The position numbers and the translations under genes are program-made. From Gemmatimonadaceae bacterium (GTDB taxonomy: Bacteria; Gemmatimonadota; Gemmatimonadetes; Gemmatimonadales; Gemmatimonadaceae): DNA of 64,000 nt. Each line of letters opens with the position of its first letter. Within the stretch, counting starts at the first letter, position 1. The notes beneath the pieces are model-generated. The model did no database searches. It was not told the origin of the DNA and worked only from the letters and a program-made list of their open reading frames with translations. The DNA lies in contig JBBDYC010000008.1 in NCBI GenBank assembly GCA_040901985.1, positions 16,490 through 80,489 of the forward strand, in the 5' to 3' direction. This document shows positions 43,345-61,435 of this stretch, one piece after another.

Positions 43345-43364
43345 CCTCCACAGACTATGAGTAA
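43345..43364 (-). promoter_or_regulatory. C-box operator
   Basis: Minus strand TACTCATAGTC-TGTG-GA resembles C.AhdI/C.PvuII-type boxes; right half degenerate. Confidence 0.6.
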
Positions 43365-43383
43365 ACCATACGATGGCGATGCC

Positions 43384-44904: not shown

Positions 44905-44976
44905 GCGCACGGGGCGGAATCTGCTTCTCCAAGCTGGTGGTACTGACCAGGAGAGTAAACCAAGGAGGCCGAGTCC

Positions 44977-45037
44977 GGATAGCGTGTGCTTCTGTTGCGA
45001 CCGCATCTGCGCTCGTCGGCAGCAAGCGTCTTTAGCA
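44977..45037 (-). repeat. Degenerate, internally deleted attC-like site
   Basis: Minus: TGCTAAA-GACGCTTGCTGCCGACGAGCGCAG..GCAACAGAAGCACAC-GCTATCC; same family as sites at 54181 and 55261. Confidence 0.6.
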
Positions 45038-45046
45038 CGCCGCGGG

Positions 45047-45616
45047 TATAAACCGAGGACATAGGTAACACTGCTAACGTGGCACGTAACCGGGGAGGTT
45101 GCGATGCCGTGGCGGAAGCTGAGACCTATGGACCAGAAGAAGGGGTTCGTGCGCGAGTACCGGCGCGGACTGTATACGCTGACGGAGCTTGCCGAGCGCT
45201 ACGATCTCTGCCGGAAGAGCGGCTATGCGCTCGTGCGCCGAGTGGACGAGCCAGGCATCGCGGGACTACAGCCGCAAAGCCGGCGACGGCACACGTCGCC
45301 GAACCGGACACCGGATTACGTCGCTACGATGCTCATCGAGGCGAAGCGGAAGTATCCAGCCTGGGGCCTAGAGATGCTGCTGCACTGGCTGCGACCACGG
45401 CATCGGGAGTTCCGCAACTGGCCCGCCAAAAGCACTTCGGTCGCGAACTTCAAGCGCGAGGCGATCCGGCCGCCGAAGGCCACGATGCGCTCGCAACAAC
45501 GGGCCTACGATGCGTTCCGCGCTGGGTACAACGCCGGCCGCCACGCCGATGACCGCAAGCAGAGCCTGCACTGGACGGACCTACGTTGTCCGCCCAGCGC
45601 ATTCTCTATGCTGTAG
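45047..45616 (+). mobile_element. IS481-family remnant (left IR-like sequence plus transposase lacking the integrase core)
   Basis: AACCGAGGACATAGGTAACAC; MPW..HTH..SRR.HTSP..PAWG..PAKST jumps to QQRAYDAFR..YN. Confidence 0.7.
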
Positions 45617-45620
45617 CTGG

Positions 45621-46775
45621 TCAGCTCCCGCGGAAGTTGATCATTGAGTTCGCGAGCAAACTAGACCAATGGCGCTGACTCTTGCCCATCTTATTAGGAT
45701 TTCGACCAGCGTCGTCGCAAGCCTCGTCGGTGACGCGAAGGAGAGAGAGTCCGTGTCGGTCCCAGATGGCGTTGAGATTTAGGTCTTGGCTCACCCAACG
45801 GTACTTATCGTCTTCGCCAACCGTGACGAACTGTCGGAAACAGGCGAGTAGTGGAAGCAGCGCGGATGGGAGTGGCTGCGCGTCACTGGTTCGATCGTTG
45901 AACGGCAGGACTTTCCTACCATTGTGAACCCACTTGAGCCCACCAAACCGGCCGCTAGCGTCATTCCAGACACCCTGGGACGTGGCAGCGATGTGATCGT
46001 GGAGTTCAAGGATATCCGTGACTATTGGAGCCAGTTTCTCGACTCCACTCGAGTCGGCAACATAGTCCTTGAGTACCGCCTCCTTGCTTGAATAAGCCTT
46101 GACAGGTTGTGTCTGGTCGGGCTTTGGCGGGTACTTCGCGATATCGAACATCGAGAGCATCGCAACGACATCACGAGCCGTAAGCTCGCCTTCATCGTTC
46201 TCGCTCCAAGCAATTCGACCGCCGTAGGGTTTACTGGCGAGCACCGCTTTGAGCCAGTCGAACCGACCTTCGAGGTTCTTTAGGCTCATGAGCTTTACTG
46301 CAACCGATGTATTCAGTCCACCGGAAATCACATCGATGAGGTCGGGGCGCAGGTTGGTGAGGACCTCGAGCTTCACATACTGCTCAGGAAACGTCGCGGT
46401 AGTGTCCGCATTAGCCTCCGTAATAATCTTAGCAGTATGCCCCCCATCGACGATTCCGTCCATCATTCCATTCTCATCGTTCAAATGGAGCGTGTACTCG
46501 TCTTCACCGCGCTTTTCCACCCGTCGGGCAATGACCGTGATGCCCTTATTCTTCAGATGAAAAAGACCGTCGTTTGATTTCAGGCTATCGCGAATCTCTC
46601 TGTAAACTGAACGATCGGTGTTGGGTTGTCGTGCATTGGGATCCAAGCACTCAGCGAGCGCGGCAGGGAAGCTGTTCGCCTGCACAAACAAAATATGCCG
46701 GTCCACACCCTCATTCTGATAGGTGGGATCCGGCATCCGGCGGGCAAAGTTGGCCCGAATAACAAATGTCTTCAT
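45621..46775 (-). CDS. AIPR family protein
   Basis: PNAR, FHLKNKGIT, GIVDGGHT, GLNTS. Confidence 0.75.
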   Translation of the reverse strand: MKTFVIRANFARRMPDPTYQNEGVDRHILFVQANSFPAALAECLDPNARQPNTDRSVYREIRDSLKSNDGLFHLKNKGITVIARRVEKRGEDEYTLHLNDENGMMDGIVDGGHTAKIITEANADTTATFPEQYVKLEVLTNLRPDLIDVISGGLNTSVAVKLMSLKNLEGRFDWLKAVLASKPYGGRIAWSENDEGELTARDVVAMLSMFDIAKYPPKPDQTQPVKAYSSKEAVLKDYVADSSGVEKLAPIVTDILELHDHIAATSQGVWNDASGRFGGLKWVHNGRKVLPFNDRTSDAQPLPSALLPLLACFRQFVTVGEDDKYRWVSQDLNLNAIWDRHGLSLLRVTDEACDDAGRNPNKMGKSQRHWSSLLANSMINFRGS

Positions 46776-47216
46776 AAAAAATCTCCCGTCCAAACTGCCG
46801 GCGCTGCCGACGCTGGACTCAAGGTTGATCAATCCTGCCATCCGGCAGGTTGACGGCTCAAGTATAGGCCATCACCTCTGTGGTGTCAAGTTCCAACGCG
46901 ACTCCGAGTCCCGGATTCAGTCATCCCCGCCGGTCCAGAGGAGGACTCGTATGCAGTCGGTGGCCATGGCCCCGGCAGCACGCCAACGGAGCCGAACGCT
47001 CCCCATCGGTCGTCCACTTCGCGGCTGAAAACAGGCTGCAATGGAATCTGGACATGCGAACGTTGGAGCGACCGCGCTACGGGTCGAGCGGAAGCAGACT
47101 TCATGCGTAAGCCCGGCGCTGAAGTGAACGCGGCTTTTCTCACTGCGAATCCCACGTTGGCGATTTCGAAGAACCAGTGTTCGATCAGGCACTCGTCGCG
47201 GAAACCAAACATACAG

Positions 47217-48653
47217 CTATTTCATAAGTCGGCGTCCGGCCGTTCTCCCAAGACCCAGGGCGACTGCAGTCTGGAGGTAAGCGCCCTCGGCATCAAACGT
47301 GATTGGCGGATCGAATCCGAGGAGCTCGCGAAAGCGCGCTTCCACGAACGTCCTGAGGGGAGCAAAACGAAAGGCTCCGCCGACGAATACGACGGAGAAG
47401 TGCCGACTAGCAACTCCGCTGTCGGCAGCGCACAACGTGATAAAGTTATTGAGGGTTGCCCCAAACCCTGACCTGCGAGACTGCATATCTAGCTCGAGCT
47501 CTAGCGATGGAGTGAGTGCGGACAAGAGACAGTGCTGCCTCTGGGAGAGGAGCTGCGAGTTCCGTTGGTCGTGAGCGGTGAGACCGAGAGTATTCGCCAC
47601 ATCGACGAACGTAATGTCCGCGAATTCATTGCCAGAAGAGAATTGGCGCTTTGCGTCCTCGAATTGAGCGTCCAATGTCACTTGTCGGGCCCTACCATCC
47701 AGGAGCTTGAATGCGTCACGCAGTCCCGAATTGCCACGCAAGATGCAGTTGGCCATCGCCTCGTTGAGATTCCGTCCACCAAATCGATGTGAACCGGAGA
47801 CGGTCTCGTTACCTACCTCTACAAGTCCCGAGCCAAGCCGATTCAGTTCGACCAACGACATATCCGTTGTACCGGCACCCGCGTCGATTATCATCAGCGC
47901 TTGGCTCTCACGATGTGGCTGGAGATCGATTCCTCGGGCCGCCGCGAGTGATTCAGGTTGGAACGTCACTTCAATATCCCTTGCACCAAACTCCCCTGCG
48001 AAATCGGCTTCGACCAGCGCCTGTCGTCGGCGCTCAGTGGCCAGCCGATATGACTCAGCCTCCGTCTTTGGAGAAATTGATGGAATGCCAATGACTACTT
48101 GGCTGATGGGTTCTCGGTACTCATCTGCGACCCGCCGTCCGACCGATCGAAATATCGCGGCGGTTGCGACGATCAGATCACTCTCTGATGGCCCGGGAGA
48201 TGCAATCTGGTAGAACTCGCGGCGCACTTCCGTGTTCTCGCTCTGGCTCATTGGATCCCACGTCGACTTGGTCTCCACCACCCGAGACCGGTACGTGGCA
48301 ATGTTGGGCTCGGAGAGCTCCGGTTTGAAGTGGGCGAGCAACATATCTGCTTCATGTCCCTCTCGGCACCAATTCTCGAAAGTGCCGTTGCGCTGCGCAC
48401 CTATACGTCGTTGCCAATACTCACCAAAGTCCTTCTGCGCTGGCTCAAATACGGACCGCACGTATCTTTTGGCCTCACCCGGTCGCCGAATGAGTGGTTC
48501 TAGGGCCGAGCTTCGGGCAAACCACACTTTCGAATTCACCAGTTCGTCAACGTTCTCGAGAATGATCAACCGGGGTCTTAGTAAGTCTGAACTGCGCGCG
48601 ACTGAGACTGCCGTCGTGGCTGTTCCAAAGTCAATTCCGACGGCTAGTGACAT
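47217..48653 (-). CDS. Atypical Hsp70/actin-like ATPase (nucleotide-binding domain only)
   Basis: GIDFGT, PESLAAA, IDAGAGTTD, FGGRNL, EDAKR, VGGA, AVALG. Confidence 0.7.
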   Translation of the reverse strand: MSLAVGIDFGTATTAVSVARSSDLLRPRLIILENVDELVNSKVWFARSSALEPLIRRPGEAKRYVRSVFEPAQKDFGEYWQRRIGAQRNGTFENWCREGHEADMLLAHFKPELSEPNIATYRSRVVETKSTWDPMSQSENTEVRREFYQIASPGPSESDLIVATAAIFRSVGRRVADEYREPISQVVIGIPSISPKTEAESYRLATERRRQALVEADFAGEFGARDIEVTFQPESLAAARGIDLQPHRESQALMIIDAGAGTTDMSLVELNRLGSGLVEVGNETVSGSHRFGGRNLNEAMANCILRGNSGLRDAFKLLDGRARQVTLDAQFEDAKRQFSSGNEFADITFVDVANTLGLTAHDQRNSQLLSQRQHCLLSALTPSLELELDMQSRRSGFGATLNNFITLCAADSGVASRHFSVVFVGGAFRFAPLRTFVEARFRELLGFDPPITFDAEGAYLQTAVALGLGRTAGRRLMK

Positions 48654-50613
48654 GCTCTTGAGCCTCCTCAATCATATTGACGATCTGAGTAATGAACTCG
48701 CCAGCGGCAACGGTCTCCCGCTGCACGACTGCAAGCGTCGAGGACACCTCGTTCTGCACGCGCTCTGCAGCCCAGGCCGTAGTCTCGGTTGCCGCAGACC
48801 GGACGTACTCATGGACTCTTGCCGCAACTTCGTCAACGACGGGGTCAGCCAGCTTCTCGCTGAGTCCGAACGGTTTGTGTGATTTATGAGCATCCCGTAT
48901 CGCAACATGCTTCCAGACCGCACGCTTCGGCCCATCGTTCGCAACCAGCTCCTCTAGAGTGGATGATCCAAGCTCGCTCTTGTTAGTCGCCACGAAGCTA
49001 CACAGCACCTCAAAAAAGTAAGGCGAATCCGCTGCGTATTGCTCTACGCGCAACCGCGCTTCGTTCAGTTCGGTCGGTAACTGCTCAATGAGCGCTCGCT
49101 CTACTGAAGAGCGCGCCGCGCCTCCTACTAGCGCAGTCTGTGAAAGCTGCTGCACTAGCATCGCGAAGTCTGTGTTACCGACTTGTGTTGCGGACTCCGT
49201 GGTCTCGCTCGCCTCTGCCGGCGACTCCGGGAGTCTCTTCGGGCTCGCGATCTCCACGGCATCGACCAGTCGTGCCGTGTCAATGCTCAGCCAAGGCACC
49301 GGATTCTTCTCGAGCCTCCTCAATTCTGCAGCGAGCATGGCTACTAGCCGTCGGAGGCGAGTCGCTTCTTGTTGCGCTGAGGCAAGCCGATCTGCGTGTT
49401 GGGCACCTTCGAGTATCTGCGCGACGCGCGAACTCACTTGGACAAGCTCACGGCGCTCGATCACCCCCTGCAGTCCCTGCCAAAGGCGAATAGCCTCGTT
49501 GGCGTCGGCGGATTCCAGCAACTCAAACGGAGCGGCAGCAGCATCAAGCTTGGACAAACTGACGGCGCTACCATCGCGCGCGGCAACCTTCTGAAATTCA
49601 AGGCGGTCGGCAGGCGCAAGCGTGCGGGCACCAAGGTTTTGAAGAACAGCCTTAAGTGCGCTACTCGTCAGTTGTGGCGTGTTCACGGCCAACAGTGCCA
49701 ACAGTGCGGCTGCTGACTGTTTCTGAAGTTCCGCCAGTTGCTTCGCGCTCAGCTTGTTGGACATTGAGAGCCGAACAGCGTCTGCCCATACGTTGGCGGC
49801 TTCGGCTGGAACGCGTGCCTTGAGAAGGTGCGAGAACAACGGGCCAGCCACGACCTTCTTTCTTGCGGCAGAATTGAAGATAGTGTGGAGGACTTGCTGG
49901 CGAAAATCATTTAGCTTCCGGAATTCGCCCGCCACACCGCCCGTCGCTTTGGTTGGCGCCACGCCTGTCGCCGCAACCTTTGCGATTGCCCGCAGGGCTG
50001 CCGTCTCCTTCGGATTCGCCCCGGCATTTGGAGATAGGCTGAGAACTAGGTGCCGATAGCAGAGTTCCTTTGCCAGCGGGCACCCTAGCGCCGAAAGGGC
50101 TGCTGCGGAGTCGTGAGTGATTCCAACGTCGCGCCAAACAGCATGACTGTCGAACCCGTTGGTATTCGGAAGCCTCAACGTCACGAAAGTACTGAAGATC
50201 GCGGGAACGCTGTTCTCTACTTCGTCGTTCGATAGCGGCCAATTGCGTCGGCGCACGCGATTGGAAATCTGTTCCTCCCATTTGCCACGAGATACCTGCA
50301 ATCCCATCGCCATAGCAACAAGCTGCCGGCCGAGCGGATGCGCATTCATCGCAACACGAGCACTATCATTCTTGGTGAGATTCAGCAGCCTAGGGTCAAG
50401 CAAAGCGTCTAATGCCAAGAAGCTGCCGATGCCACCCAGGAACTCAGCGTTCAAAAAGGCAGCCCGCAGGCCTGCGGGGCTCTTGATAGAGCCTATCAGA
50501 GCCTTCCTTGCTTGCTGGTAGGCCGACCTTGTGAGGGGGTTCGCATCGGTGGCCGTAAGAAGCTGCTCAAGGGCTTGACGCGTGTTCGTTGGCGAAATCG
50601 GCTTTCTATTCAT
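48631..50613 (-). CDS. 660-aa Ala/Leu-rich helical hypothetical protein
   Basis: Long ORF with AGGAG RBS; overlaps Hsp70-like start. Confidence 0.65.
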   Translation of the reverse strand: MNRKPISPTNTRQALEQLLTATDANPLTRSAYQQARKALIGSIKSPAGLRAAFLNAEFLGGIGSFLALDALLDPRLLNLTKNDSARVAMNAHPLGRQLVAMAMGLQVSRGKWEEQISNRVRRRNWPLSNDEVENSVPAIFSTFVTLRLPNTNGFDSHAVWRDVGITHDSAAALSALGCPLAKELCYRHLVLSLSPNAGANPKETAALRAIAKVAATGVAPTKATGGVAGEFRKLNDFRQQVLHTIFNSAARKKVVAGPLFSHLLKARVPAEAANVWADAVRLSMSNKLSAKQLAELQKQSAAALLALLAVNTPQLTSSALKAVLQNLGARTLAPADRLEFQKVAARDGSAVSLSKLDAAAAPFELLESADANEAIRLWQGLQGVIERRELVQVSSRVAQILEGAQHADRLASAQQEATRLRRLVAMLAAELRRLEKNPVPWLSIDTARLVDAVEIASPKRLPESPAEASETTESATQVGNTDFAMLVQQLSQTALVGGAARSSVERALIEQLPTELNEARLRVEQYAADSPYFFEVLCSFVATNKSELGSSTLEELVANDGPKRAVWKHVAIRDAHKSHKPFGLSEKLADPVVDEVAARVHEYVRSAATETTAWAAERVQNEVSSTLAVVQRETVAAGEFITQIVNMIEEAQEHVTSRRN

Positions 50614-50789
50614 TCCGAAAGCTCCTACTCGAACGCTGGATTCCGCAAGCAGCCGAGAGCCCCCGCCGTCCCGATCCGGCTCAGACTCTAGATCATGCTC
50701 CTCCAGGGCCTTGAGGATCGTGGCAATACCTCCGCGATGTACTTCGATCCACGATCATTGGGAAAACGATGACCGCCGCCAGCACGCCG

Positions 50790-50824
50790 TGCGTCAAGCC
50801 CGTCGCCAGCAAGCGTCGTTAACC
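50790..50824 (-). repeat. Partial attC (left arm only)
   Basis: GGTTAAC-GACGCTTGCTGGCGACGG containing the stop of the 50819 gene. Confidence 0.5.
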
Positions 50825-51481
50825 CGGATCTCGAATGCGCGCCACAAGCCAAACCTCCGTGTCGTTTGGCAGCCGATGCGCCACGAGCCACACGTGACAA
50901 CGCTTTCGAACGCGAAGCGCGCGACTCTTGTAAACTGAGAAAGGAAGGAAGCAGGTCACCTCGGCTGCGTAACCGTAATCCGGATCGGCGTCGGCACGAA
51001 GGCGCAACTCAACGTGCGGCTCACTCACGAGCTTGCCTAAGAATCCACGGCTGACCGGATTCTCTGGATAGCTAAGACGCTTGAAGAAGTTCACCTGCCG
51101 CGCCTCTGATATGATTTGACCCTCTATTTCCTCCGAGTCTCCTTCAGGTACGACCGAGACAACCGTCTCTTTCCCGGTCTCGGAAAAGATGTCCCTTTGA
51201 AGTCGGTCGAGCACGGCTGGCGGCACGTCCACGCCACGCTCCACGGCCGCGGCTTCGATGAGTCGCTTGGTCTCTTGGGCGGAGACCCCGCGAGCGCGGA
51301 ACTGACGAATCTGGTAAGGGACGCACGTGCGCGCGTGAAGCGGCCACGGTTCACCCGGACTCTCAAAGAATACTCGCGAACCGCAGCTGCAAGAGAAGAA
51401 GTAGACGCGCGCGGTGCAGTCTTGGCATGTCGTACGCCACATTCTCGAAGAGCAACCCGAGGCATGATTTGGAACGCCCAC
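50819..51481 (-). CDS. Cassette 8: Cys/His-rich putative Zn-binding protein
   Basis: CQDC..FFSCSCGSRVFF..PWPLH..C. Confidence 0.65.
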   Translation of the reverse strand: MGVPNHASGCSSRMWRTTCQDCTARVYFFSCSCGSRVFFESPGEPWPLHARTCVPYQIRQFRARGVSAQETKRLIEAAAVERGVDVPPAVLDRLQRDIFSETGKETVVSVVPEGDSEEIEGQIISEARQVNFFKRLSYPENPVSRGFLGKLVSEPHVELRLRADADPDYGYAAEVTCFLPFSVYKSRALRVRKRCHVWLVAHRLPNDTEVWLVARIRDPG

Positions 51482-51501
51482 TCAGTTGGCCCTCTAGATC
51501 G

Positions 51502-51601
51502 GTGTAGCGTTTACTTCCGCTGCGAGCGCTTTCACAAAATGGTGCCGTGGCCCCACAACCGCCACCTCAGCTGCGTTCGTCGGCAGCAAGGGTCGCTATG
51601 T
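51502..51601 (-). repeat. attC7 (AGC/GCT core)
   Basis: ACATAGC..TTGCTGCCGACGAACGC..GCGCTCGCAGCGGAA..GCTACAC. Confidence 0.65.
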
Positions 51602-52531
51602 CGCCGCGAGCCATCGCGCTACTTCGGTGATCACGTGAACTGCCGGAGGCGCGCCAAAGGCGGCCAGCCACTCGTCAGCCGAACCGTGAACGAGGACACC
51701 CTGTCTCGGCAAGCAGAGCGCGAGCCGAGTGAAGCCAAACGGTGCATGGCCGTGGCTGCGGCTCCTGTCAAATGCGAAGTAACAGATCAGTTGAGCGACC
51801 GCCTTGGCCTGAGCACCGGCTTGGGTACACTTGAGCTCCACGAGCGTGTCCCCGGAGATCCAGTCTCCATCGCTTGCGATTACTGGACCGATGCCGCCGA
51901 AGCGCGGGTTGGGGAAGAAGTCACCGCCTATGCGAGTGTCGCGAACGTTTCGCAGTAGCGCTGCAATCTCCGCAAGGCTTTGTGGTGGAATGATGCGCTC
52001 AAACCACAAGCGAGCCGCGCGCGGAGAAATATGTCTTGGCAGCAATGAACTATTGATATCGCTCAGAGGCCGATAGCCCCGCCTCACAGGATCGAGCATT
52101 CCCAAGACTGCGAGCCATCCGAGGTAGGCTTCGCTATGAAAGTGTCCGCGACTGGGCAAGCGATAGCGGGCGATCGCATCTGCGATTTGCCGCGAGGCCG
52201 GGCCTCGACCGCGCAACCAAGTGATGGCAGGTTGCGCGATGTCGACACCAGACAAGTGGAGAACACCTCGATCTACTGCTTGGCCCACAACCGAGTAGAG
52301 AGATTGCGACCTCGTCGCTTCAGATGCTGGTACTGCGAGCCCAGTGCGAGCGGCGCAATTGATAGCTGCAATGGTGCTGCGAGACTGGGGAAGGAGCTGA
52401 CGCGTAAACTCAGGGGTTGCGCGCAAGAAGTCCGAAAGTGGCGCCCGCGCTGGCTTCTTCTGCGGAGCATCGAGTCTCCATTGCTTAACCTCCCGCGCAG
52501 GGAGTGAAAGCTGGCTAAGTGCGATGCGCAT
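51596..52531 (-). CDS. Cassette 7: PD-(D/E)xK-like nuclease candidate
   Basis: NPRFG..SDGDWI..LVELKCT..QLICY. Confidence 0.55.
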   Translation of the reverse strand: MRIALSQLSLPAREVKQWRLDAPQKKPARAPLSDFLRATPEFTRQLLPQSRSTIAAINCAARTGLAVPASEATRSQSLYSVVGQAVDRGVLHLSGVDIAQPAITWLRGRGPASRQIADAIARYRLPSRGHFHSEAYLGWLAVLGMLDPVRRGYRPLSDINSSLLPRHISPRAARLWFERIIPPQSLAEIAALLRNVRDTRIGGDFFPNPRFGGIGPVIASDGDWISGDTLVELKCTQAGAQAKAVAQLICYFAFDRSRSHGHAPFGFTRLALCLPRQGVLVHGSADEWLAAFGAPPAVHVITEVARWLAAT

Positions 52532-52549
52532 CCGACCTCAAGTCAGTCC

Positions 52550-52684
52550 ACATCGCATTTGCCGGTGCTGTGGACGCTCATTCAAAAAGACTCTGGCGGC
52601 GTGGCCGCAACCAGCCCGGGTCATCACGGCCACCCCGTCCAACCCATCATTACGCGCGGCCGTCGGCAGAAAGCGTCGCTATCC
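52550..52684 (-). repeat. attC6 (degenerate)
   Basis: GGATAGC-GACGCTTTCTGCCGACGG..TCCACAGCACC..GCGATGT. Confidence 0.5.
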
Positions 52685-53266
52685 ATTCGCGGGCCGAATC
52701 GCAGCTGGGTGTGGAGTTCCAGCGGTCTGCCCCACGAGGGAAAAGAGCATTCCGCCGCGAACGGTAAGACGCTGCAGAGTTCGCGGATTGGACTCAATGG
52801 AAGCATGAAAGCGCTCCCAGCCGCGAACAACGGCATTCGCGAGATCCTCCAGTTGTACAGCAACCGCCTCCTTCTCGTCGCTCACGGCAATGAGCCGCCT
52901 AAGTGCCGGTAGAGAGCCGCTCCCCAATGCGTAGGAGATTGGGCGAGCCTTTCCCTTGCGCTGAAGTGCAGAATAGGCAGAGAACGAATGCAGAACTCCG
53001 CACCGTGCGGCATACAGATCAAGTGCCGAGCAGTCGAGTCCCGACTGGGGCAGCAGGTACTCGTCAACCCACCTTACGAAATCTTTCTTGGTGACGTCGC
53101 CACCGTGTTCAACAGAAAGCCACGCGGCCGCATCGATCGTCGAGTAGAGAACGACGAGAAAGGATTGAATGTGTCCTTTATCGAGGAGAACTCTGAGGCT
53201 CGCGAACGACTGGTCGAATGCACTGCGAATTGAGAGCGCGCTTAGCGCGGCAAGGTCCTGTGCCAT
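52679..53266 (-). CDS. Cassette 6: HEPN-like helical protein
   Basis: ATG directly after GTTATCT core; LYAARCGVLH Rx4H motif. Confidence 0.55.
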   Translation of the reverse strand: MAQDLAALSALSIRSAFDQSFASLRVLLDKGHIQSFLVVLYSTIDAAAWLSVEHGGDVTKKDFVRWVDEYLLPQSGLDCSALDLYAARCGVLHSFSAYSALQRKGKARPISYALGSGSLPALRRLIAVSDEKEAVAVQLEDLANAVVRGWERFHASIESNPRTLQRLTVRGGMLFSLVGQTAGTPHPAAIRPANG

Positions 53267-53400
53267 AGATAACGTTTGGTTGTGCTGCAGCCGATCAAAC
53301 AACATGCGGGACGGCGGCCACGCCGACCCCTGCCTTACAATAGAGCGTGGCCGCCGTCCCGCTACATTAGCCCGGCTGTCTGCACCAACCACCGTTAGGC
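53267..53400 (-). repeat. attC5 (canonical cores)
   Basis: GCCTAAC-GGTGGTTGGTGCAG.CAGCCG..CGGCTGCAGCACAACC..GTTATCT; long internal palindrome. Confidence 0.8.
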
Positions 53401-53413
53401 TGGGCGGGCCACG

Positions 53414-54148
53414 CTATAGGGCCTTGAAGTAGGTCGCGCCATCGAGCTGTCGGAAAAGGAACGAGATGAAACTGAGGATATCAAGAGCATCCTCCTTCAG
53501 AATCGGCCAGTCGAGTGCGGGCTCGTGCGCGGTCGGATTGCGAATGGCCTGCATCAGGCCGGCCGAAAGGAACTTCACGCCGTCCTGCACATTGCGATCT
53601 GTGTCCGTCACGCACGCAGTGATCTTTAGGACTCCCTTCTCCGCACCCAGTACGTCGAGCATCAACGACTGGCCATCTTTGGAGCTCTTGGACTTTCGCT
53701 TTACTTCCACGTTGTAGACTTTCGCGGACTCGAATACCGCGTGGAAATAGTTGCCCTGGAGAAACAGCTTGCGCGAGTGTTGCACCACGGTGGAGTGAAA
53801 TCGACGACTCGCGAACAGCTCTAGATTCTCTTTGTTCACGATGGAGGCACCGATACCCGCCTCGCTGAGGATGCGCTGGACCGCTTCGCGTTCGGCTTCG
53901 GCCGATATCTTGAGGCAGAACTGAACGAGGAGCCTGTCTCGCTCCTCACCGGTCAGTGGCTGTTTCGCCAGAGTCAGAATCCAGTCGTGCACCAGCTGCG
54001 CGCGCAGTGACGTAATCGCGTCGTTGACGAACGACTGCTTCTGAAACCGAAAGAGTGCGCCCGCAACGCGATTAATCTCGTTGACTGTGGACGACCACTT
54101 GAAGATGTCTCCGACTTCAACGGCGATCGCGCGATAGTTCGGAGCCAC
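53414..54148 (-). CDS. Cassette 5: TIGR02391 family protein
   Basis: GNYFHAVFESAK, DGQSLM, IRNPTAHE, DALDILSFIS. Confidence 0.75.
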   Translation of the reverse strand: MAPNYRAIAVEVGDIFKWSSTVNEINRVAGALFRFQKQSFVNDAITSLRAQLVHDWILTLAKQPLTGEERDRLLVQFCLKISAEAEREAVQRILSEAGIGASIVNKENLELFASRRFHSTVVQHSRKLFLQGNYFHAVFESAKVYNVEVKRKSKSSKDGQSLMLDVLGAEKGVLKITACVTDTDRNVQDGVKFLSAGLMQAIRNPTAHEPALDWPILKEDALDILSFISFLFRQLDGATYFKAL

Positions 54149-54180
54149 TCTCTCTCCGTTCACGGTTAAGGTGGACCTCA

Positions 54181-54280
54181 GCCGAATGTGTGCTTCTGCT
54201 GCGAGCGCTTCCATAAAGTGGAGCAGTGGCCCCACAACCGCTACCGCACCTGCGCTTGTCGGCAGCAACCCTCGCTATGC
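54181..54280 (-). repeat. attC4 (mutated cores)
   Basis: GCATAGC..TTGCTGCCGACAAGCGC..GCGCTCGCAGCAGAA..ATTCGGC. Confidence 0.7.
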
Positions 54281-54321
54281 AGCCGCGACGAGAGGTCATG
54301 TACTAGGTTGGCAGGCTACGG

Positions 54322-55218
54322 CTACGGGACAAGCAGGAAGTTGAACAAGTAAATGCCGTAGTTGTCCTGCACCCAACAATCGACGTGACACGCGCGGCCG
54401 ACAGGAACAGAAAGTGGGACCCCTGAGGAATGCCGAAAGTCGCGAAGGTCCTTGCTGAGAGTTTGTCGAGCCGAAAGCCGAGGAATCACAGCGTAGAATG
54501 CGTCTACGAAGGCCCAGCTATTGCGCGGCTGGTCGCCCACAAAGAGCCCTAAGCGGACCGACTGCATGTCGGTGTCTCCGAGGTTTTCGAGGCTGATTGA
54601 GTCCGTTGTCAGGGCAACGGCCATGTGGACTCGATGCTCAACCCCTTCGTGCGGGCGTAGATTGCGCAGTGGTCGGGCGTCAATCGAAAATGTTCCGGTC
54701 AGTGGAGGAATAGCAGGAAACGCCAGACCTGCAGAAGCCTTTGGCGCTTGAGCGAACGAGATACCCCTTTCCCTCGCCTTTTTGAAAGCCTCTCGTAGCG
54801 TGTCAAGTGCGAACGCGTTGGAGCGTTGCTGATACTCCCTCGCCAAGCGCTGCTTAAGCTCCTCAAGCCCATCGGCAATCTGCGGAAGTTCGGAAGCCCC
54901 TTTCAAGAGAGCATACGCAGCTGGGATGCCGACTGCGACTATAAGATACGCCTCGATGACAAATGAGCCCTTATACGCATCTCCAATCCTTACCTTAGGC
55001 CGCTCTTCAGGCGAAAGCCCGACTCTGGCAAAGTACTCGTCTGCAATCTCAGAGACAGTCGCCACGAAGAGCTGCTTCCACTTGCCAGAGTACTCCATAA
55101 GAAAGTTGTCGTCACGGGCAAACCACTCGTCAGCTGCATGGTCGGTCATCCAGCGGCGAACTTCATCCGTGAAGGCGAGTTCCGCGCGGAGATTGGCGAT
55201 GACTGTCTCGCGTTCCAT
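54322..55218 (-). CDS. Cassette 4: hypothetical protein with one TM segment
   Basis: 298-aa ORF filling the attC3-attC4 interval. Confidence 0.65.
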   Translation of the reverse strand: MERETVIANLRAELAFTDEVRRWMTDHAADEWFARDDNFLMEYSGKWKQLFVATVSEIADEYFARVGLSPEERPKVRIGDAYKGSFVIEAYLIVAVGIPAAYALLKGASELPQIADGLEELKQRLAREYQQRSNAFALDTLREAFKKARERGISFAQAPKASAGLAFPAIPPLTGTFSIDARPLRNLRPHEGVEHRVHMAVALTTDSISLENLGDTDMQSVRLGLFVGDQPRNSWAFVDAFYAVIPRLSARQTLSKDLRDFRHSSGVPLSVPVGRACHVDCWVQDNYGIYLFNFLLVP

Positions 55219-55260
55219 GGTCGGTGGTCTGAGGTGATGACACCAAGCGAGCTAGAGTCC

Positions 55261-55327
55261 GCATAACGTGTGCTCCTTCTGCAACCGCTACCGCACCCGC
55301 GCTTGTCGGCAGCAAGCGTCGCTAGCT
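55261..55327 (-). repeat. attC3 (internally deleted)
   Basis: AGCTAGC-GACGCTTGCTGCCGACAAGCGC..GCAGAAGGAGCACAC-GTTATGC. Confidence 0.7.
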
Positions 55328-56386
55328 GGTGCGGCGGTCGCGCATCCAGCCGGCCACCGGACGAACAAGCCGGCCGGACGGAATCGAGGAGACCTCAAGA
55401 GTCTCAAGATTGTAGTCGTGTGCTGAACGAAGGTCGATCCAGACACCCTTGGGGCTCAGCGCAAGGCGAACATCGTAGGGACGTTCGCTAAAGAGGATGA
55501 CAGTACCAAGAATGTCTGTGGACTCGTCTGCGTCCCAGGTGGCGGCAATGAAGTGGTGCCTGCCAGCACGCTCACCCGCGTGACGATTCTGGTCCTCGGA
55601 TCTGGGTTCCATCGGCCGGACGAACGCACGCATGTCTCCCTCTCCGTAACGAATGAAGCACCGAATGGGATTGAAGTCAGGCGAGTATACAAATGTCGGG
55701 TACTCCTTAGCCGTTACCTTTGCCAAGTAATTGAATGCGATTTTTGCGACCGCACGCCGCACAATTGCATCGACAGTCTGTCTCACCTCGAGCTGGAACT
55801 CGAAGCCGTCTGGCGGTGGCGTAAACTGCTCACCAGGACGAAACGTGAGACCGTGCGTCGCCAAGTGCTCGATCAGTCGGTCCTTTGCTCCCGGATGCTG
55901 GACGGACCAGAATAGATCCTTCCTTTCAACATCAATGTCCGGTACAGACTTCGGATCTGTGGTGACGAGTTCGGCCTCAGTCATGCAAATAAACCCGCCG
56001 CTCTTGAGCCGGAAACGGACCTGCGGGCGTAGCACAAACCCTATTCGACCGTCGGAACTGCCCGGCGCTAGCTCAAGATAGAGCGGACCCAGCGGCGAAT
56101 CGGGAGGCAGCTGAACGGTGACTCGGGACTTCCTAATCTCGTAGGCCTCGTCCGCGGGTTTGAGTCCGAGTGTAAGCCGCAGCATCGCCTCGACCGAGTC
56201 CCGTGTGAGGACCAAGTCTAGGGTCCTGCCAAACTCTGTGTTGCACGTTGCGCAAACCCTTGGGTCCTCGGAAGGAGTCAGCGTGAGAGCTCCCTGAAAG
56301 CCACCGAACGCTGCGTGGAGAACGTGCTCCCGATTGAACTGTTCGAGAGGCTTCGTTTCGAGACAGTAGATGCAGAGCGCCTTCAG
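55322..56386 (-). CDS. Cassette 3: HNH endonuclease (CTG start)
   Basis: In-frame upstream extension of the 297-aa ORF: CIYC..REHV..FGG..VCATCN; GGAG shortly before CTG 56386. Confidence 0.7.
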   Translation of the reverse strand: MKALCIYCLETKPLEQFNREHVLHAAFGGFQGALTLTPSEDPRVCATCNTEFGRTLDLVLTRDSVEAMLRLTLGLKPADEAYEIRKSRVTVQLPPDSPLGPLYLELAPGSSDGRIGFVLRPQVRFRLKSGGFICMTEAELVTTDPKSVPDIDVERKDLFWSVQHPGAKDRLIEHLATHGLTFRPGEQFTPPPDGFEFQLEVRQTVDAIVRRAVAKIAFNYLAKVTAKEYPTFVYSPDFNPIRCFIRYGEGDMRAFVRPMEPRSEDQNRHAGERAGRHHFIAATWDADESTDILGTVILFSERPYDVRLALSPKGVWIDLRSAHDYNLETLEVSSIPSGRLVRPVAGWMRDRRTS

Positions 56387-56414
56387 TGTTGGCTCCAGTG
56401 ACGATGCTGCATCC

Positions 56415-56510
56415 AGCTAACGTGGGATTTTGCTGCGGACACTCCAATAAGATGCGGGCGCGAAGCGCCAGCCTCAATAGAGTGGCCGTCAGTACCAAGC
56501 GGCGTTAGCT
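56415..56510 (-). repeat. attC2 (canonical)
   Basis: AGCTAAC..CTGACGGCCACTC..GAGTGTCCGCAGCAAAATCCCAC-GTTAGCT. Confidence 0.88.
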
Positions 56511-57377
56511 CGCGACTCGGCTCGATCCATCCGTGGCCATAAGCACCAGAGGAAGGTTCAGTCGAGAGACGACGAGGTAATGGAGTATCAAGTCAGCGCC
56601 ATTCAAGAAGTCGTCCCGCTCGTTCTCTGAGAGTTCGTCCTTGAGTGCAAGTGCAGATCGCTTGTCGACTAGATGCCTAGTCTCCCTTCGATTGTTACTG
56701 ATGTCGAAGAACCAGGGCAATGCGCGAGGGAGGGATGCGATTACCGCCGGAGGCATCGCCGCCTGTTTCGCCGTTAGATCCATGCCTGGCAGCAACTCGC
56801 GCCCCAGCTCGAGGCCTTTGCTGAGCAAGAGAGGAGCGAGCGAGGGATCGTGAGTGGTCAGAGCGCCATAATGGAGCTGACCGAGTTCCGCCGTGGTTGT
56901 ATCAGCACTTCCGATCGCCTCGAGAGCCCGCAGCGTGTCGTCGAGCGGAGTTGCGGGCAGCACTCTCGTGCGCGGACGCGACGCAATCCCGTCGAGTAGC
57001 TCCCAGTCGTCTGCCGCGATGAGTTCTTTGCTGGTTGCGTCGAGCGACCAAGCGCGCGGCACTTGTTGCGGCTGAATAAGGTATCGAAACGTCTTTCCAT
57101 TGAGCGGCCAACCGGTTGCGTAGTTGAAAGCGCGGTCAACATCTCGGGCGAGGTCACAGGCGCGCATGAACACGATACCGGGATCATCACCTTCCTCAAT
57201 CGCGCCGTCCAGCTGAATCTGGTAGGCTGGACCTGAGATGCTCTCGTGCCAAGTGACGGACTCAGACAGTGTCCACACTCCGCGAGTCTCCGAGTGCGGT
57301 GCGAGCTTGGTGTCGACCTCAACGCGAATCGGGTGCGAATGAAGCGACAACAACCGAGGCGGAATAGTTCGCTCCAA
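56505..57377 (-). CDS. Cassette 2: HEPN-like (ApeA/MauJ-type) protein
   Basis: C-terminal helical region with RRETRH Rx4H; stop codon inside the attC inverse core. Confidence 0.55.
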   Translation of the reverse strand: MERTIPPRLLSLHSHPIRVEVDTKLAPHSETRGVWTLSESVTWHESISGPAYQIQLDGAIEEGDDPGIVFMRACDLARDVDRAFNYATGWPLNGKTFRYLIQPQQVPRAWSLDATSKELIAADDWELLDGIASRPRTRVLPATPLDDTLRALEAIGSADTTTAELGQLHYGALTTHDPSLAPLLLSKGLELGRELLPGMDLTAKQAAMPPAVIASLPRALPWFFDISNNRRETRHLVDKRSALALKDELSENERDDFLNGADLILHYLVVSRLNLPLVLMATDGSSRVAS

Positions 57378-57381
57378 GTCG

Positions 57382-57478
57382 AGCTAACGTGGGATTGTGC
57401 TGCGGACACTCTAGTAAAATGCAGCGTCGCAGGCGCTGCTACCATAGCGTGGCCGTCAGCCACCACGCGTCGTTATCC
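57382..57478 (-). repeat. attC1 (canonical)
   Basis: GGATAAC..CTGACGGCCACGCTA..TAGAGTGTCCGCAGCACAATCCCAC-GTTAGCT. Confidence 0.88.
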
Positions 57479-58003
57479 TGCACGCACATCAGTCGATACG
57501 GGGAGGCTCAGTCGGAGCCAGCGGCGCGCGCAAGCGCTTTCCCCGGCGTCTATGAGTGAAGCGCGAAATAGCTGAGTCCGGGGCTTGGCGAGTCTAAAGA
57601 GCGGCTCGCTCGTCGGGAGATACGCATAGAACTCACGCACGGATTCGGCCGGGACTTGCGCTGTAGCGAAGCGGCTATACAGCGGGAGCGTGGCAACGTG
57701 CCCAAGAACTCCTGACAGCACCAGCGCTTTGAGCTCGACACCAATCCGTCCCTGGTTCTGGACGCGCAAGGTAATCGTGGGCGCCGGCGGACCCACGAAT
57801 GTGTCAGTCGACGGGTCGTAGCTTGAGGACGGATGTTGAGACCCAAATCCTACGGAGAAATGCAGTCGCGGCACGTCCCGGAGGCGCTGTGCGCGTCCAA
57901 CAACGATCGTCGCGAGGATTCCAAGGAGCCCGACAACCGCAGTGAGCATCTCGCCCGCAGAAATCTCTTCGACAATTGCGGACAAGAGGCCGGTCTCTAC
58001 CAC
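57473..58003 (-). CDS. Cassette 1: hypothetical protein with N-terminal TM anchor
   Basis: AAGGAG RBS then GTG 58003; stop codon inside GGATAAC. Confidence 0.65.
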   Translation of the reverse strand: MVETGLLSAIVEEISAGEMLTAVVGLLGILATIVVGRAQRLRDVPRLHFSVGFGSQHPSSSYDPSTDTFVGPPAPTITLRVQNQGRIGVELKALVLSGVLGHVATLPLYSRFATAQVPAESVREFYAYLPTSEPLFRLAKPRTQLFRASLIDAGESACARRWLRLSLPVSTDVRAG

Positions 58004-58019
58004 CTGAGTCTCCTTGTCT

Positions 58020-58037
58020 GGATAACGAGTGTTAGGC
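58020..58037 (-). other. attI-like recombination site overlapping the sufS stop codon
   Basis: Minus: GCCTAAC-ACTC-GTTATCC; GTTATCC is complementary to the cassette 1 inverse core GGATAAC. Confidence 0.6.
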
Positions 58038-59318
58038 CGCGAAGAATCTTTGTCGAGCGCTTTCAAGACCCTGGGCGAGGCGCAGAACATCGGCGCTCAT
58101 GCTATAAACCCAAACACTAGCCCGCACCGTAGCCACCACCCCCATCCCCCGCATCAGTGGCTGCGCACAATGATGCCCCGCTCTCACGCATACGCCGGCA
58201 GCATCGAGCGCAGTAGAAACATCATGCGGATGCACCTCCGCCAACGAAAACGAAACCACCCCCGACCGCGCCTCAGCAGTAGCAGTCCCATACAAAGTCA
58301 CCCCAGGCACCTCGCCCAAAGCAGCCATCATCTCCCGAGTAAGCTCCACCTCGTGAGCCCGCACCTTATCCATCCCAAGCGCATCCAAGTACGTACAAGC
58401 AGCCGCCAACCCAACAGCACCAGCCACATTCGGCGTCCCCGCCTCGAACTTATGCGGCAACGCATTCCAAGTCGTCGAGAGATCCGAAACCCACTCAATC
58501 ATATCCCCGCCAAACTGATACGGCGGCATCGCCTCAAGCACAGCGCGCCGAACCACCACGCCACCTGATCCCATCGGCCCACCCATCTTGTGCCCGCTGA
58601 ACGCATACACATCCACACCCAGCGAATCCACCGACACAGCAAGATGCGGCACCGCCTGAGCCCCATCGCAAACAACTAACGCCCCACGCGCACCAGCCCG
58701 CGCGATCGCGACGATCTCCGCAACAGGATTGATCGTCCCAAGCGCATTCGACACGTGCCCAAACGCGACAACCTTCGTGCGTGCGTCAACCAACCGAGCC
58801 ATCATCTCGAGATCAACCCCGCCCGCAGCATCCAACTCGCAGATCCTGAACTCGGCCCCCACGCTCAAAGCCAGCTGCTGCCAAGGCACAAAGTTGGCGT
58901 GATGCTCCATCCGCGTGACCACGATGTTGTCACCCGCGCGGACATTAGCCCGCCCCCAAGCGGTGGCCACGAGATTCAACCCCTCGGTGGTCCCCCGCAC
59001 AAAGATCAGCGTATCAGCATCCGCCACACCCACAAACCGCGCGATCCGCACACGCGCATCGTGATACGCCTGCGTCGCCGCCGCCGACAACGCGTACGCC
59101 CCGCGATGCGGATTGGCGTTCTCTGTCTCGTAGTAGTTCCGAATGGCATCCAACACCACACGCGGCTTCTGCGACGTCGCGGCAGAATCCAAATACACAA
59201 GATCCGGCTGCGCAGCGAGCAACGGAAAATCCGATCGTGGCGCGAGCGACCCCTTCGTCACGCCAGCGCCCGCCGGCCGCTTCGCGCCCCGCGCGACCTT
59301 CACGCCCGTCTTACCCAC
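58032..59318 (-). CDS. sufS: Cysteine desulfurase SufS
   Basis: YLDSAATSQKP, EHHAN, FSGHKM, EAGTP, VRAGHHCAQP. Confidence 0.95.
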   Translation of the reverse strand: MGKTGVKVARGAKRPAGAGVTKGSLAPRSDFPLLAAQPDLVYLDSAATSQKPRVVLDAIRNYYETENANPHRGAYALSAAATQAYHDARVRIARFVGVADADTLIFVRGTTEGLNLVATAWGRANVRAGDNIVVTRMEHHANFVPWQQLALSVGAEFRICELDAAGGVDLEMMARLVDARTKVVAFGHVSNALGTINPVAEIVAIARAGARGALVVCDGAQAVPHLAVSVDSLGVDVYAFSGHKMGGPMGSGGVVVRRAVLEAMPPYQFGGDMIEWVSDLSTTWNALPHKFEAGTPNVAGAVGLAAACTYLDALGMDKVRAHEVELTREMMAALGEVPGVTLYGTATAEARSGVVSFSLAEVHPHDVSTALDAAGVCVRAGHHCAQPLMRGMGVVATVRASVWVYSMSADVLRLAQGLESARQRFFAA

Positions 59319-59635
59319 ATCCCCCCCTCGCGCTCCTCGATTTCATAGCGCACCAACGGATCCTCGGCCGGCCCGCGCAACACCTCGCCGGTGACGCACG
59401 AGAACTTGGCCCCGTGCCAGCAGCACTCGAGCTCGCCATTCGCGTACAACGTCCCCTCGGAGAGCGGATACTCCGAGTGCGGACAGGAATCCTTCACCGC
59501 GAAGAGCGCCCCTTGGTGCCGGCCGATGCACAGGCGCGCGCCATTCGCCAGCGTCACCGCCACAAGCGTCCCCTCGTCCACCTGCTCGGGCTTGAGGCCG
59601 CTCACCGGCACGAGCCCGTCCGCCGCTGCCGTCAC
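59300..59635 (-). CDS. Rieske-type [2Fe-2S] ferredoxin
   Basis: CPH..LSEG..ECCWHG..GPA. Confidence 0.85.
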   Translation of the reverse strand: MTAAADGLVPVSGLKPEQVDEGTLVAVTLANGARLCIGRHQGALFAVKDSCPHSEYPLSEGTLYANGELECCWHGAKFSCVTGEVLRGPAEDPLVRYEIEEREGGMWVRRA

Positions 59636-60120
59636 GCGCCACCGCCGCGCGCGTCGGCGTCTTCGGTCGTCGCGACCTTCGTCCCGTCCAGCGCGGCCTT
59701 CATCGCGTGCCAGCTCAGGGACGCGCACTTCACCCGCATCGGGAACTTGCTGACCCCGCTCAGCGCCCGCAGCGCGCCCAGCTCCTTGTCGGTCGCCAAC
59801 GCGGGATCCTCGCCGGTCACCAGTCGGTGCACCTTGTCGAAGACCCGCACGGCCTCGCCGCGCGACTTCCCCTTCACGGCCATCGTCATCAGGCTCGCCG
59901 ACGCCTTGGAGATCGCGCACCCGACGCCTTGGAACGAGATGTCCTCAATCGTGTCGTCGTCCACCTTGAGCCACACGGTGAGCGCGTCGCCACAGTTGGG
60001 ATTCTTCCCCTCCGCGCTGCACGTGGCCCCGGGCATCGGATGATAGTTCCGCGGCCGTCGGTTGTGATCGAGGATCACTTCCTGGTAGAGGGCGTCGAGC
60101 GTAGCGTCTTGCTTGGCCAT
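59632..60120 (-). CDS. sufU: SUF system NifU/SufU protein
   Basis: LYQEVILDH, NPNCGD, GCAISKAS, RVKCA. Confidence 0.92.
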   Translation of the reverse strand: MAKQDATLDALYQEVILDHNRRPRNYHPMPGATCSAEGKNPNCGDALTVWLKVDDDTIEDISFQGVGCAISKASASLMTMAVKGKSRGEAVRVFDKVHRLVTGEDPALATDKELGALRALSGVSKFPMRVKCASLSWHAMKAALDGTKVATTEDADARGGGA

Positions 60121-60124
60121 CGCG

Positions 60125-61435
60125 CTAGACGAGCTGCGAGTGAGTGAACCGCTCAAACACGGCACGCTCCAGGTGGAGCCGCAGTGCGTCAATCTCGATC
60201 GTCTCCAGCGTCTCCGCGGCAAAGGCGTACGTCAACAGCGCGCGCGCGTTGTCACCGCCAATCCCGCGGCTCTTGAGATAGAACAACGCGTCCTCGTCCA
60301 TCCGCCCGATCGTCGCGCCGTGCGTGCACTTCACGTCGTCGGCGAAGATCTCCAGCTGCGGCTTGGTGTCCACCCGCGCCTTCGGCGAAAGCAACAGCGC
60401 CTTGTTGGTCTGCTTGCCGTCGGTCTTCTGGGCAATCGGATCCACGTACACCTTGCCGTTGAACACGCCGTGCGACGAGCCATCGAGAATGCCGGCATAC
60501 AACTCGCGGCTCGCGCAGCCCACCGCGAGATGCTCCACAAAGGTCTGATGGTCGGCGTGCTGCGCGTCGTCGAGGAGATAGAGCCCGTTGAGACGCGCCT
60601 CGCCCCCCTCGCCCGACAGCTTGGTGTAGACGTTGGTCCGCGAGAGCGAGCCGCCCGCCGCGTACGAGAAGGAGTGGTAGATCGAATCGCGCCCCTGCGA
60701 CACCTGCGTGGTCCCCACGTGGAACGCCTCGGCGCATTCCTGCTGCACCTTGTAGTGGTCCACGCGCGCGCCATTGCCCACCACGACCTCGGCGACGCCA
60801 TTCACCAGGTACGAATGCCGCCCGATGCCGACGAAGCTCTCGACGACCATCACCTGCGCGAGCGCCTCGGCAACGACCAACAGCCGCGGATGGAGCGCCG
60901 CGCCCGCCGCCTGGCCGTCCACGAGGTGCAGGATGTGGATTGGCACGTCCACGACCTCGGCCTTCGGCACGCGCAGCACGGTTCCTTCCTGCAGGAAAGC
61001 GGTGTTGAGCGCGGTGAACGCCGCACGGTCAAAGCCGGCGAGCGCGCCGAGGTGCTCCTCCACCCACTCGGGCTCCTCGCGGAGCAGCTCGGAGAGCGGC
61101 GAAAGCTCAACCGCGGCCGGCAACCCGGCGAATGCCGAGAGCGCGGGTTCGAGCTTTCCGTTCACGAACACCAGGCGATGCCACTCGGCGTCCACGAGGT
61201 AGGGCTCGAGGTCGGCGAGCTTGAGCGTGGTCGACGCGGGCTTCACCGCCTTGAACGTCCGCTCGGTGATCGGCGTGACGGAGGTGAAGTGCCAGTCCTC
61301 GTCGCGCGTGGTGGGGAATCCGAGCGCGGTGAAGCGGTCGAACGCCTTGCGCCGGAGCGCGGGAAGCCACGCCGGCCCCTGCGCCCCGCCATTCGCCACG
61401 AAGTCGGTGAACTGGTCGGCGTACGGCGTCGTCAC
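60125..61435 (-). CDS. sufD: Fe-S assembly protein SufD
   Basis: FPTTRDEDW, FNGKV, PQLEIFADDVKCTHG. Confidence 0.93.
   Translation of the reverse strand: MTTPYADQFTDFVANGGAQGPAWLPALRRKAFDRFTALGFPTTRDEDWHFTSVTPITERTFKAVKPASTTLKLADLEPYLVDAEWHRLVFVNGKLEPALSAFAGLPAAVELSPLSELLREEPEWVEEHLGALAGFDRAAFTALNTAFLQEGTVLRVPKAEVVDVPIHILHLVDGQAAGAALHPRLLVVAEALAQVMVVESFVGIGRHSYLVNGVAEVVVGNGARVDHYKVQQECAEAFHVGTTQVSQGRDSIYHSFSYAAGGSLSRTNVYTKLSGEGGEARLNGLYLLDDAQHADHQTFVEHLAVGCASRELYAGILDGSSHGVFNGKVYVDPIAQKTDGKQTNKALLLSPKARVDTKPQLEIFADDVKCTHGATIGRMDEDALFYLKSRGIGGDNARALLTYAFAAETLETIEIDALRLHLERAVFERFTHSQLV

Follow-up and report, generated by a model that had tools for sequence, protein, structure and literature searches.

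We analysed a 64,000-nt stretch of a Gemmatimonadaceae genome (hereafter the window; assembly GCA_040901985.1, contig JBBDYC010000008.1, positions 16,490 to 80,489), in which eight cassettes stand in a row behind the cysteine desulfurase gene sufS. This row is a genuine integron cassette array of the kind known as a CALIN, in which attC sites are clustered without an integron-integrase. Our preferred reading, to which we assign a probability of roughly 0.7, is that it is a satellite array whose cassettes were inserted in trans, by an integron integrase, at a G|TT six bases past the sufS stop codon.

A cassette array behind sufS

Eight open reading frames (ORFs) between 50819 and 58003 all lie on the minus strand, and the first cassette begins six bases past the sufS stop codon. 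Together the cassettes carry seven full attC sites and one half-site. An earlier note on this DNA had described eight co-oriented minus-strand genes with attC-like palindromes, stop codons that often fall inside the inverse core, and start cores that complement the inverse core of their own cassette; all of these are present where the note placed them. The stop codon lies within the inverse core in six of the eight cassettes, and TAG stops explain three of the four TAGC variants. From cassette 1 to cassette 8, the start core matches its own inverse core at 7, 7, 6, 6, 5, 5, 6, and 4 of seven positions, and of the 32 comparisons at the four positions that vary, 28 match (permutation p = 1e-4). 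The match declines with distance from sufS (rho = -0.84, p = 0.009), which is what entry of cassettes next to sufS would predict.

57473..58003, minus strand: cassette 1 ORF, 176 aa, no family match; AAGGAG upstream
57382..57478, minus strand: attC1, 97 nt, 92 bits, fold z -3.3
56505..57377, minus strand: cassette 2 ORF, 290 aa, no family match
56415..56510, minus strand: attC2, 96 nt, 88 bits, fold z -4.5
55322..56416, minus strand: cassette 3 ORF, N-terminal HNH domain (PF14279, E 2.5e-8); start position uncertain, probably a CTG, the frame being open from 56416
55261..55327, minus strand: attC3, 67 nt, internally deleted, 43 bits
54322..55218, minus strand: cassette 4 ORF, 298 aa, no family match
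54181..54280, minus strand: attC4, 100 nt, 65 bits
53414..54163, minus strand: cassette 5 ORF, TIGR02391/Hypoth_Ymh domain; defence profiles matched: PD-Lambda-3_B and HEPN-like
53267..53400, minus strand: attC5, 134 nt, 103 bits, fold z -8.4
52679..53266, minus strand: cassette 6 ORF, 195 aa, no family match
52550..52684, minus strand: attC6, 135 nt, R' degenerate (GCG), 70 bits
51596..52531, minus strand: cassette 7 ORF, C-terminal PD-(D/E)xK-like domain (PADLOC RTasPDDEXK, E 2.6e-14)
51502..51601, minus strand: attC7, 100 nt, R' GCT, 74 bits
50819..51481, minus strand: cassette 8 ORF, 220 aa, no family match
50790..50824, minus strand: attC8, left arm only, E 0.34; not recovered by the covariance model

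That the palindromes are attC sites is borne out by a covariance model that we built on 18 attC-like sites of this genome (our own model, not that of IntegronFinder). It recovers seven sites of the array at 43-103 bits, six of which were training rows and one of which, attC3, was not; outside the array, it also finds a lone short site at 44977-45037. The anatomy is canonical, with an R'' of seven bases, 5 nt, and an L'' with two unpaired bases on one arm and L', 6 nt, and R' on the other. Across the 18-site alignment, 87.9% of the cells pair, and double-sided changes occur in 10 of the 25 pairs (0 of 500 shuffles). Against this, single-strand folding beats shuffles for attC1, attC2, and attC5 only, and not for attC3, attC4, attC6, attC7, and attC8; the distal attC sites are thus partly decayed. 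The attC family of the array is also present on contigs C3, C7, C9, C11, C14, C16, and C17 of the same genome (the array itself is on contig C8). How many arrays this genome has is uncertain, since IS30-like and other repeated ends break arrays at contig ends (the starts of C3, C14, C16, and C19 and the end of C7).

Five of the eight cassette ORFs have no match in Pfam or PADLOC. The matches of the others are nuclease- or defence-like (HNH, TIGR02391/HEPN-like, and PD-(D/E)xK-like), and none is related to iron-sulfur (Fe-S) metabolism. One contig of the probable source run covers 55292-60200 without differences and spans the sufS-cassette junction, although it is not independent of the assembly. 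We disregarded a 50717-58071 joint in another sequencing run, one side of which is just 20 nt.

The sufS junction and intI-free attI sites in the genus

sufS is the last gene in a sufB-C-D-U-Rieske-sufS run, and the closest named relatives of its product are from Gemmatimonadaceae (up to 78% identity). Its stop codon is native, standing at the same position as in orthologs, and the docking site has this TAA (58034-58032) as its left half.

58032..59303, minus strand: sufS, cysteine desulfurase, intact (TIGR01979, 509 bits, above cut-off)
58020..58038, minus strand: leaderless attI-like core, GGCCTAACACTC|GTTATCC, with the TAA-N5-GTT geometry shared with clade-A attI (defined below)

The junction reads GCC-TAA-CACTCG-TTA-TCC, as the earlier note described it, and crossover would take place at G|TT, 58026/58025. 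The GTTATCC at the junction matches the inverse core of cassette 1 at 7 of 7 positions. There is no leader at this junction, where similarity to leaders does not rise above that of shuffles. We also rejected the idea that leader DNA has taken the place of the sufS C-terminus: the leader of L087 matches over 12 nt, but no better than shuffles do, and the stop has kept its orthologous position. The last 25 SufS columns are more diverged (0.47 compared with at least 0.60) yet homologous.

An integrase acting in trans, as the earlier note proposed for this integrase-less array, is available in the genome. Contig C8 holds no intI remnant (E<1), and no intI adjoins the array; two integron integrases are encoded on contigs C3 and C17, both above the TIGR02249 cut-off, matching the full profile, and with intact catalytic motifs. 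Across the genus, intI was matched in 35 of 55 genomes. At the intI loci with attC in reach (16 of 31), the cassettes are all 3' of intI and on the same strand. Among the 31 loci, the leader that separates intI from its first cassette has a terminal core like TAATCCAC|GTT in 17 (clade A, as on C3) and ends in TGAAT-N5|GTT in six (clade B, as on C17); the other eight show neither of these or are truncated. Of 58 leaders, 50 have a promoter-like TTGCG-17-xAxxxT 60-125 nt upstream (consensus match only).

With a position weight matrix made from the 17 intI-linked cores, the sufS junction CCTAACACTC|GTT scores 4.6 and ranks 61 of 41,909 GTT sites. It is one base away from TAACACAC, the core of L100. 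The pattern [CA]TAA..C.CGTTA, which we picked after seeing both, has just two sites in the genome, the C3 attI and the sufS junction. By these comparisons, the junction resembles a degenerate version of the clade-A attI core, and to this extent the earlier note's view of the sufS end as an attI-like site stands.

The conserved junction that the note expected downstream of sufS in relatives was absent. sufS was matched in 45 of the 54 other genomes and truncated in four of these, leaving 41 complete ends, one of them with 19 nt downstream. The junction, an attI core, and attC were found at 0 of these 41 ends with 1.5-kb flanks, a length that could miss a first cassette of greater size if it lacked an attI core. 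Model R1 likewise found no conserved junction in 17 Gemmatimonadota sufS loci, and the exact junction pattern had no match in metagenome contigs. Thus, rather than a dedicated platform, sufS is a leaderless case, specific to one lineage, within a set of satellite attI platforms found across the genus.

Elsewhere in the genus, many housekeeping genes are followed by integrase-free arrays that begin with a copy of the leader, including its promoter-like site and attI core. The exact core YAATHCACGTTA has 57 matches in 29 of the 55 genomes (reversed control, 0), with five exact cores to one intI in G016 and three to one in the closed genome G078. Near-complete relatives carry several arrays per genome, based on the covariance model and at most 150 candidates scored in each, a cap that may have left the lists incomplete. 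We retrieved 40 array starts, 11 of them with insufficient upstream sequence; the 29 assessed starts, all intI-less, have a strong attI core in 15 cases, a weak one in three, and none in 11, and the 15 strong cores also match the inverse core of the first cassette. No intI was matched at any of these 29 starts, nor at 25 additional core-bearing loci. Leaders of one genome are often mutual best matches, and six docking genes are common to two to four species. Altogether, attI platforms without intI are a regular feature of the genus.

Our genome has a second intI-free array at L039:3600-4897 (C11:99600-100896), 206 nt behind a gene that, from its motifs, we take to encode a MoxR-like ATPase. 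Its core, CAATCCTC|GTT, ranks 6 of the 41,909 GTT sites, and none of the other MoxR loci of the genus (29 fetched) has it. The leaders at L088, L089, L090, L101, L102, L108, and L109 are about 200 nt long and near-identical within a genome; they contain internal direct repeats and have a palindromic left end like an inverted integrase-binding site. At L176 (G005 C266), the attI core stands just 46 nt past the host stop codon, possibly an intermediate between the full leader and the sufS state. In the arrays of C3, C17, and C16, cassettes that stand first or near the start (L043:1470-2190, L005:490-960, and L041:330-990) resemble two-gene toxin-antitoxin modules, as read from sequence. Further along C16, L041:1075-2600 holds what we presume, from motifs, to be a merR-merT-merP-merA-like mercury module, which runs straight into the inverse core of an attC, as though it had been taken up as one large cassette.

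Origin of the array and alternatives

If the cassettes were inserted in trans, the acting enzyme would most likely be the clade-A IntI of C3, whose attI core the junction resembles. The TAA of the sufS stop codon would serve as the inverted binding half-site. New arrivals would be added next to sufS and displace earlier cassettes outward, to positions in which the sites of the latter would decay; this presumes that the site was used repeatedly. Two origins of the site stand at about even odds. A cassette may have been captured at a native host site that mimics the core, the route described for secondary (attG) sites, or a normal leader may have been inserted and then removed by deletion between two shared copies of CTAA.

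Several observations weigh against insertion in trans at an attI-like junction. Most satellites score 10-19, so the 4.6 of the junction is near the weak ones, and 60 GTT sites score higher. The junction differs at two positions that are invariant across the 17 intI-linked cores, an invariance that is partly circular because these cores were chosen by motif. The polarity of core decay could be inherited, had the array moved as a block. Finally, searches of metagenome contigs and sequencing runs returned no second strain with a different first cassette.

An unlikely alternative is a one-off insertion at an attG site, after which the array grew by attC x attC recombination or came as a block, the junction not being reused; this would make it an ordinary CALIN. 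Such insertion needs little beyond GWT and is frequent in E. coli (10.1101/2022.09.11.507474). At sufS, GTT stands at the crossover (58026). The bases at +6 to +9, where an empty attG site would have CRGM, read CAGA but belong to cassette 1, the empty site not having been recovered. The modest junction score and the missing leader would fit, as would the finding of TAA-N5-GTT at 5 of the 157 TAA-ending genes of this genome, which means that such sites arise by chance. However, the freshest cores adjoin sufS, attI-likeness in the top 0.15% is unlikely for a random GWT site, and the silent-site skew described below suggests long residence.

It is very improbable that the array is the remnant of a complete integron, with an intI between sufS and the array deleted along with the promoter. 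Loss of intI is a listed source of CALINs (PMC4889954), and in this genus intI lies directly upstream of its array. Yet the contig is free of intI remnants, downstream of ortholog sufS ends no intI was seen and no attC within 1.5 kb, and intI-free leaders without remnants are common in the genus (0 intI matches in 42 + 25 loci). Hardly credible is an evolved dedicated platform at sufS that places cassettes under Fe-S/oxidative-stress control: the suf run is tightly packed with neither terminator nor leader before cassette 1, but none of the other 41 sufS ends of the genus has the arrangement, unrelated genes of many kinds have satellites behind them, and the cargo matches are nuclease- or defence-like rather than Fe-S related.

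As for expression, the earlier note saw no terminator before cassette 1, and our promoter and terminator scan agrees, with none between the sufS stop and cassette 1 and with counts overall at chance level. The Pc promoter and accessory leader found upstream in a complete integron are absent at sufS, which makes read-through from suf the default source of transcription; lacking a satellite-type promoter leader, the first cassettes would be readable only by extension of suf transcription or through any promoters that they carry themselves. Judging from the sequence, read-through into cassette 1 is plausible, while Fe-S/oxidative-stress control of the cassettes is something we can only infer. A search of sequencing runs listed one that carries this sequence, possibly the source sample, and none of RNA. 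A candidate internal promoter in the sufS 3' end (GTGCGG-17-TAGCAT at -101) was rejected because other sufS windows score equally; the best promoter-like score in this region is reached by 26% of synonymous shuffles.

The sufS array is best read as known in kind; what is new are the genus-wide attI-headed satellites and a host stop codon as half-site. CALINs contain two or more attC sites, with no intI nearby, and integration at secondary sites in trans is one of four origins listed for them (PMC4889954). The sufS array is alike in both respects, and also in having no nearby intI pseudogene and an integrase elsewhere in the genome. That study sought attI only by exact match to classes 1-3, whereas here the family's own attI was derived. 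CALINs are usually seen as dead remnants or cassette stores, their attI being unrecognisable. Unlike in that study, a copy of the host attI with its promoter-like leader starts most assembled CALINs of this genus, and some of these occupy loci that are orthologous across species, which points toward live platforms served in trans.

There is also a likeness to attG sites and to single attC sites lacking integron-integrases (SALINs), where a cassette sits at a host GTT without an integrase and a host promoter can express it (10.1101/2022.09.11.507474). In that work, attG sites are described as unlike attI, whereas the sufS junction, with eight cassettes behind it, has a likeness to the attI core of its host. 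The same authors, Loot et al., suggested that attI sites could derive from genome hotspots; the sufS site would be a minimal case and offers a direct test. On C3 and C17, intI and cassettes are co-oriented, as in the inverted-integrase sedentary integrons (PMC4889954), and attI lies past the intI 3' end, as in archaeal integrons (10.1101/2022.02.06.479319). Unlike in inverted-integrase integrons, the leader here also stands alone at several chromosomal sites per genome. Our literature search, which covered few subscription journals, returned no paper that treats a host stop codon as attI half-site, multiple attI-headed satellites per genome, the anatomy of Gemmatimonadota integrons, or a strand skew next to attI.

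Silent-site strand skew and the far end of the array

The sufS gene and the sequence before it show a strong strand skew at silent sites.

58032..60100, minus strand: skewed silent-site zone, T at four-fold sites rising toward the junction

T at four-fold sites is about 0.03 in sufB-sufU, 0.12 at the sufS start, and 0.3-0.4 near the junction. Among 1402 called genes (called with our own simple caller), sufS is the most extreme at four-fold sites in both T minus A and (G+T-A-C). In the last 170 sufS codons, T is 0.34, compared with at most 0.11 in 39 of the 41 complete orthologs; the two exceptions have 0.28 (a lower-GC genome) and 0.20. The skew is shared by other arrays. At 19 junctions including sufS, with L083 (a candidate start without attI-like core) and the doubtful L105 left out, the upstream skew of the top strand reaches +0.55 in the nearest 500 nt and has faded at 1.5 kb; kin are not independent in these statistics. 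At 25 new loci, it is +0.29 in co-oriented genes and +0.57 in opposite-strand genes; the skew therefore follows the array strand. A general operon-end effect was rejected, as ordinary gene ends show small means (0.01-0.06). We likewise set aside a weak mirror skew after array ends: over the initial 500 nt it is -0.20 and -0.16, its anchors are poorly defined, and part of it is the normal 5'-end bias (-0.05 to -0.08).

Compared with array-free orthologs in our genome (G000), docking genes have a pooled skew of 0.37 vs 0.02 within 700 nt. Pooled substitutions over the same distance number 63 C>T vs 14 G>A and 41 G>T vs 12 C>A, and are symmetric beyond 3 kb. C>T and G>T changes would be the outcome of deamination and oxidation on an exposed top strand. 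Against a causal role of the arrays, just 13 of 19 pairs are positive per gene (p = 0.087), array-free sufS orthologs already have a skew of 0.04-0.59 and array-free MoxR orthologs of up to 0.72, and C-richness is common among clade-A intI genes. It may instead be that leaders are drawn to loci already skewed. Genes with strong G-rich skew also precede low-GC islands without a matching array start (C7:102651-103517 and C17:187546-189081), which suggests that skew marks insertion hotspots in general.

A bolder proposition, which we regard as doubtful, is that an attI was born from a host stop codon that by chance resembled the integrase core site and came to admit cassettes again and again without a leader. 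It would be part of a distributed integron, with one or two integrases for many fixed platforms on the chromosome, whose activity leaves a strand-specific mutational scar of about 1 kb. If true, this scar in the neighbouring housekeeping gene (top-strand loss of C and gain of T and G) would be a possible clock of integron activity. The skew, if caused by recombination, would also represent a cost of integrons to flanking essential genes.

Beyond cassette 8, positions 43357-50613 of the window contain a 660-aa ORF of unknown function, an Hsp70/actin-like ORF, an AIPR gene, an insertion sequence fragment, the isolated short attC noted above (44977-45037), and a type II methyltransferase. This segment looks like a defence island grown out of the old end of the array.

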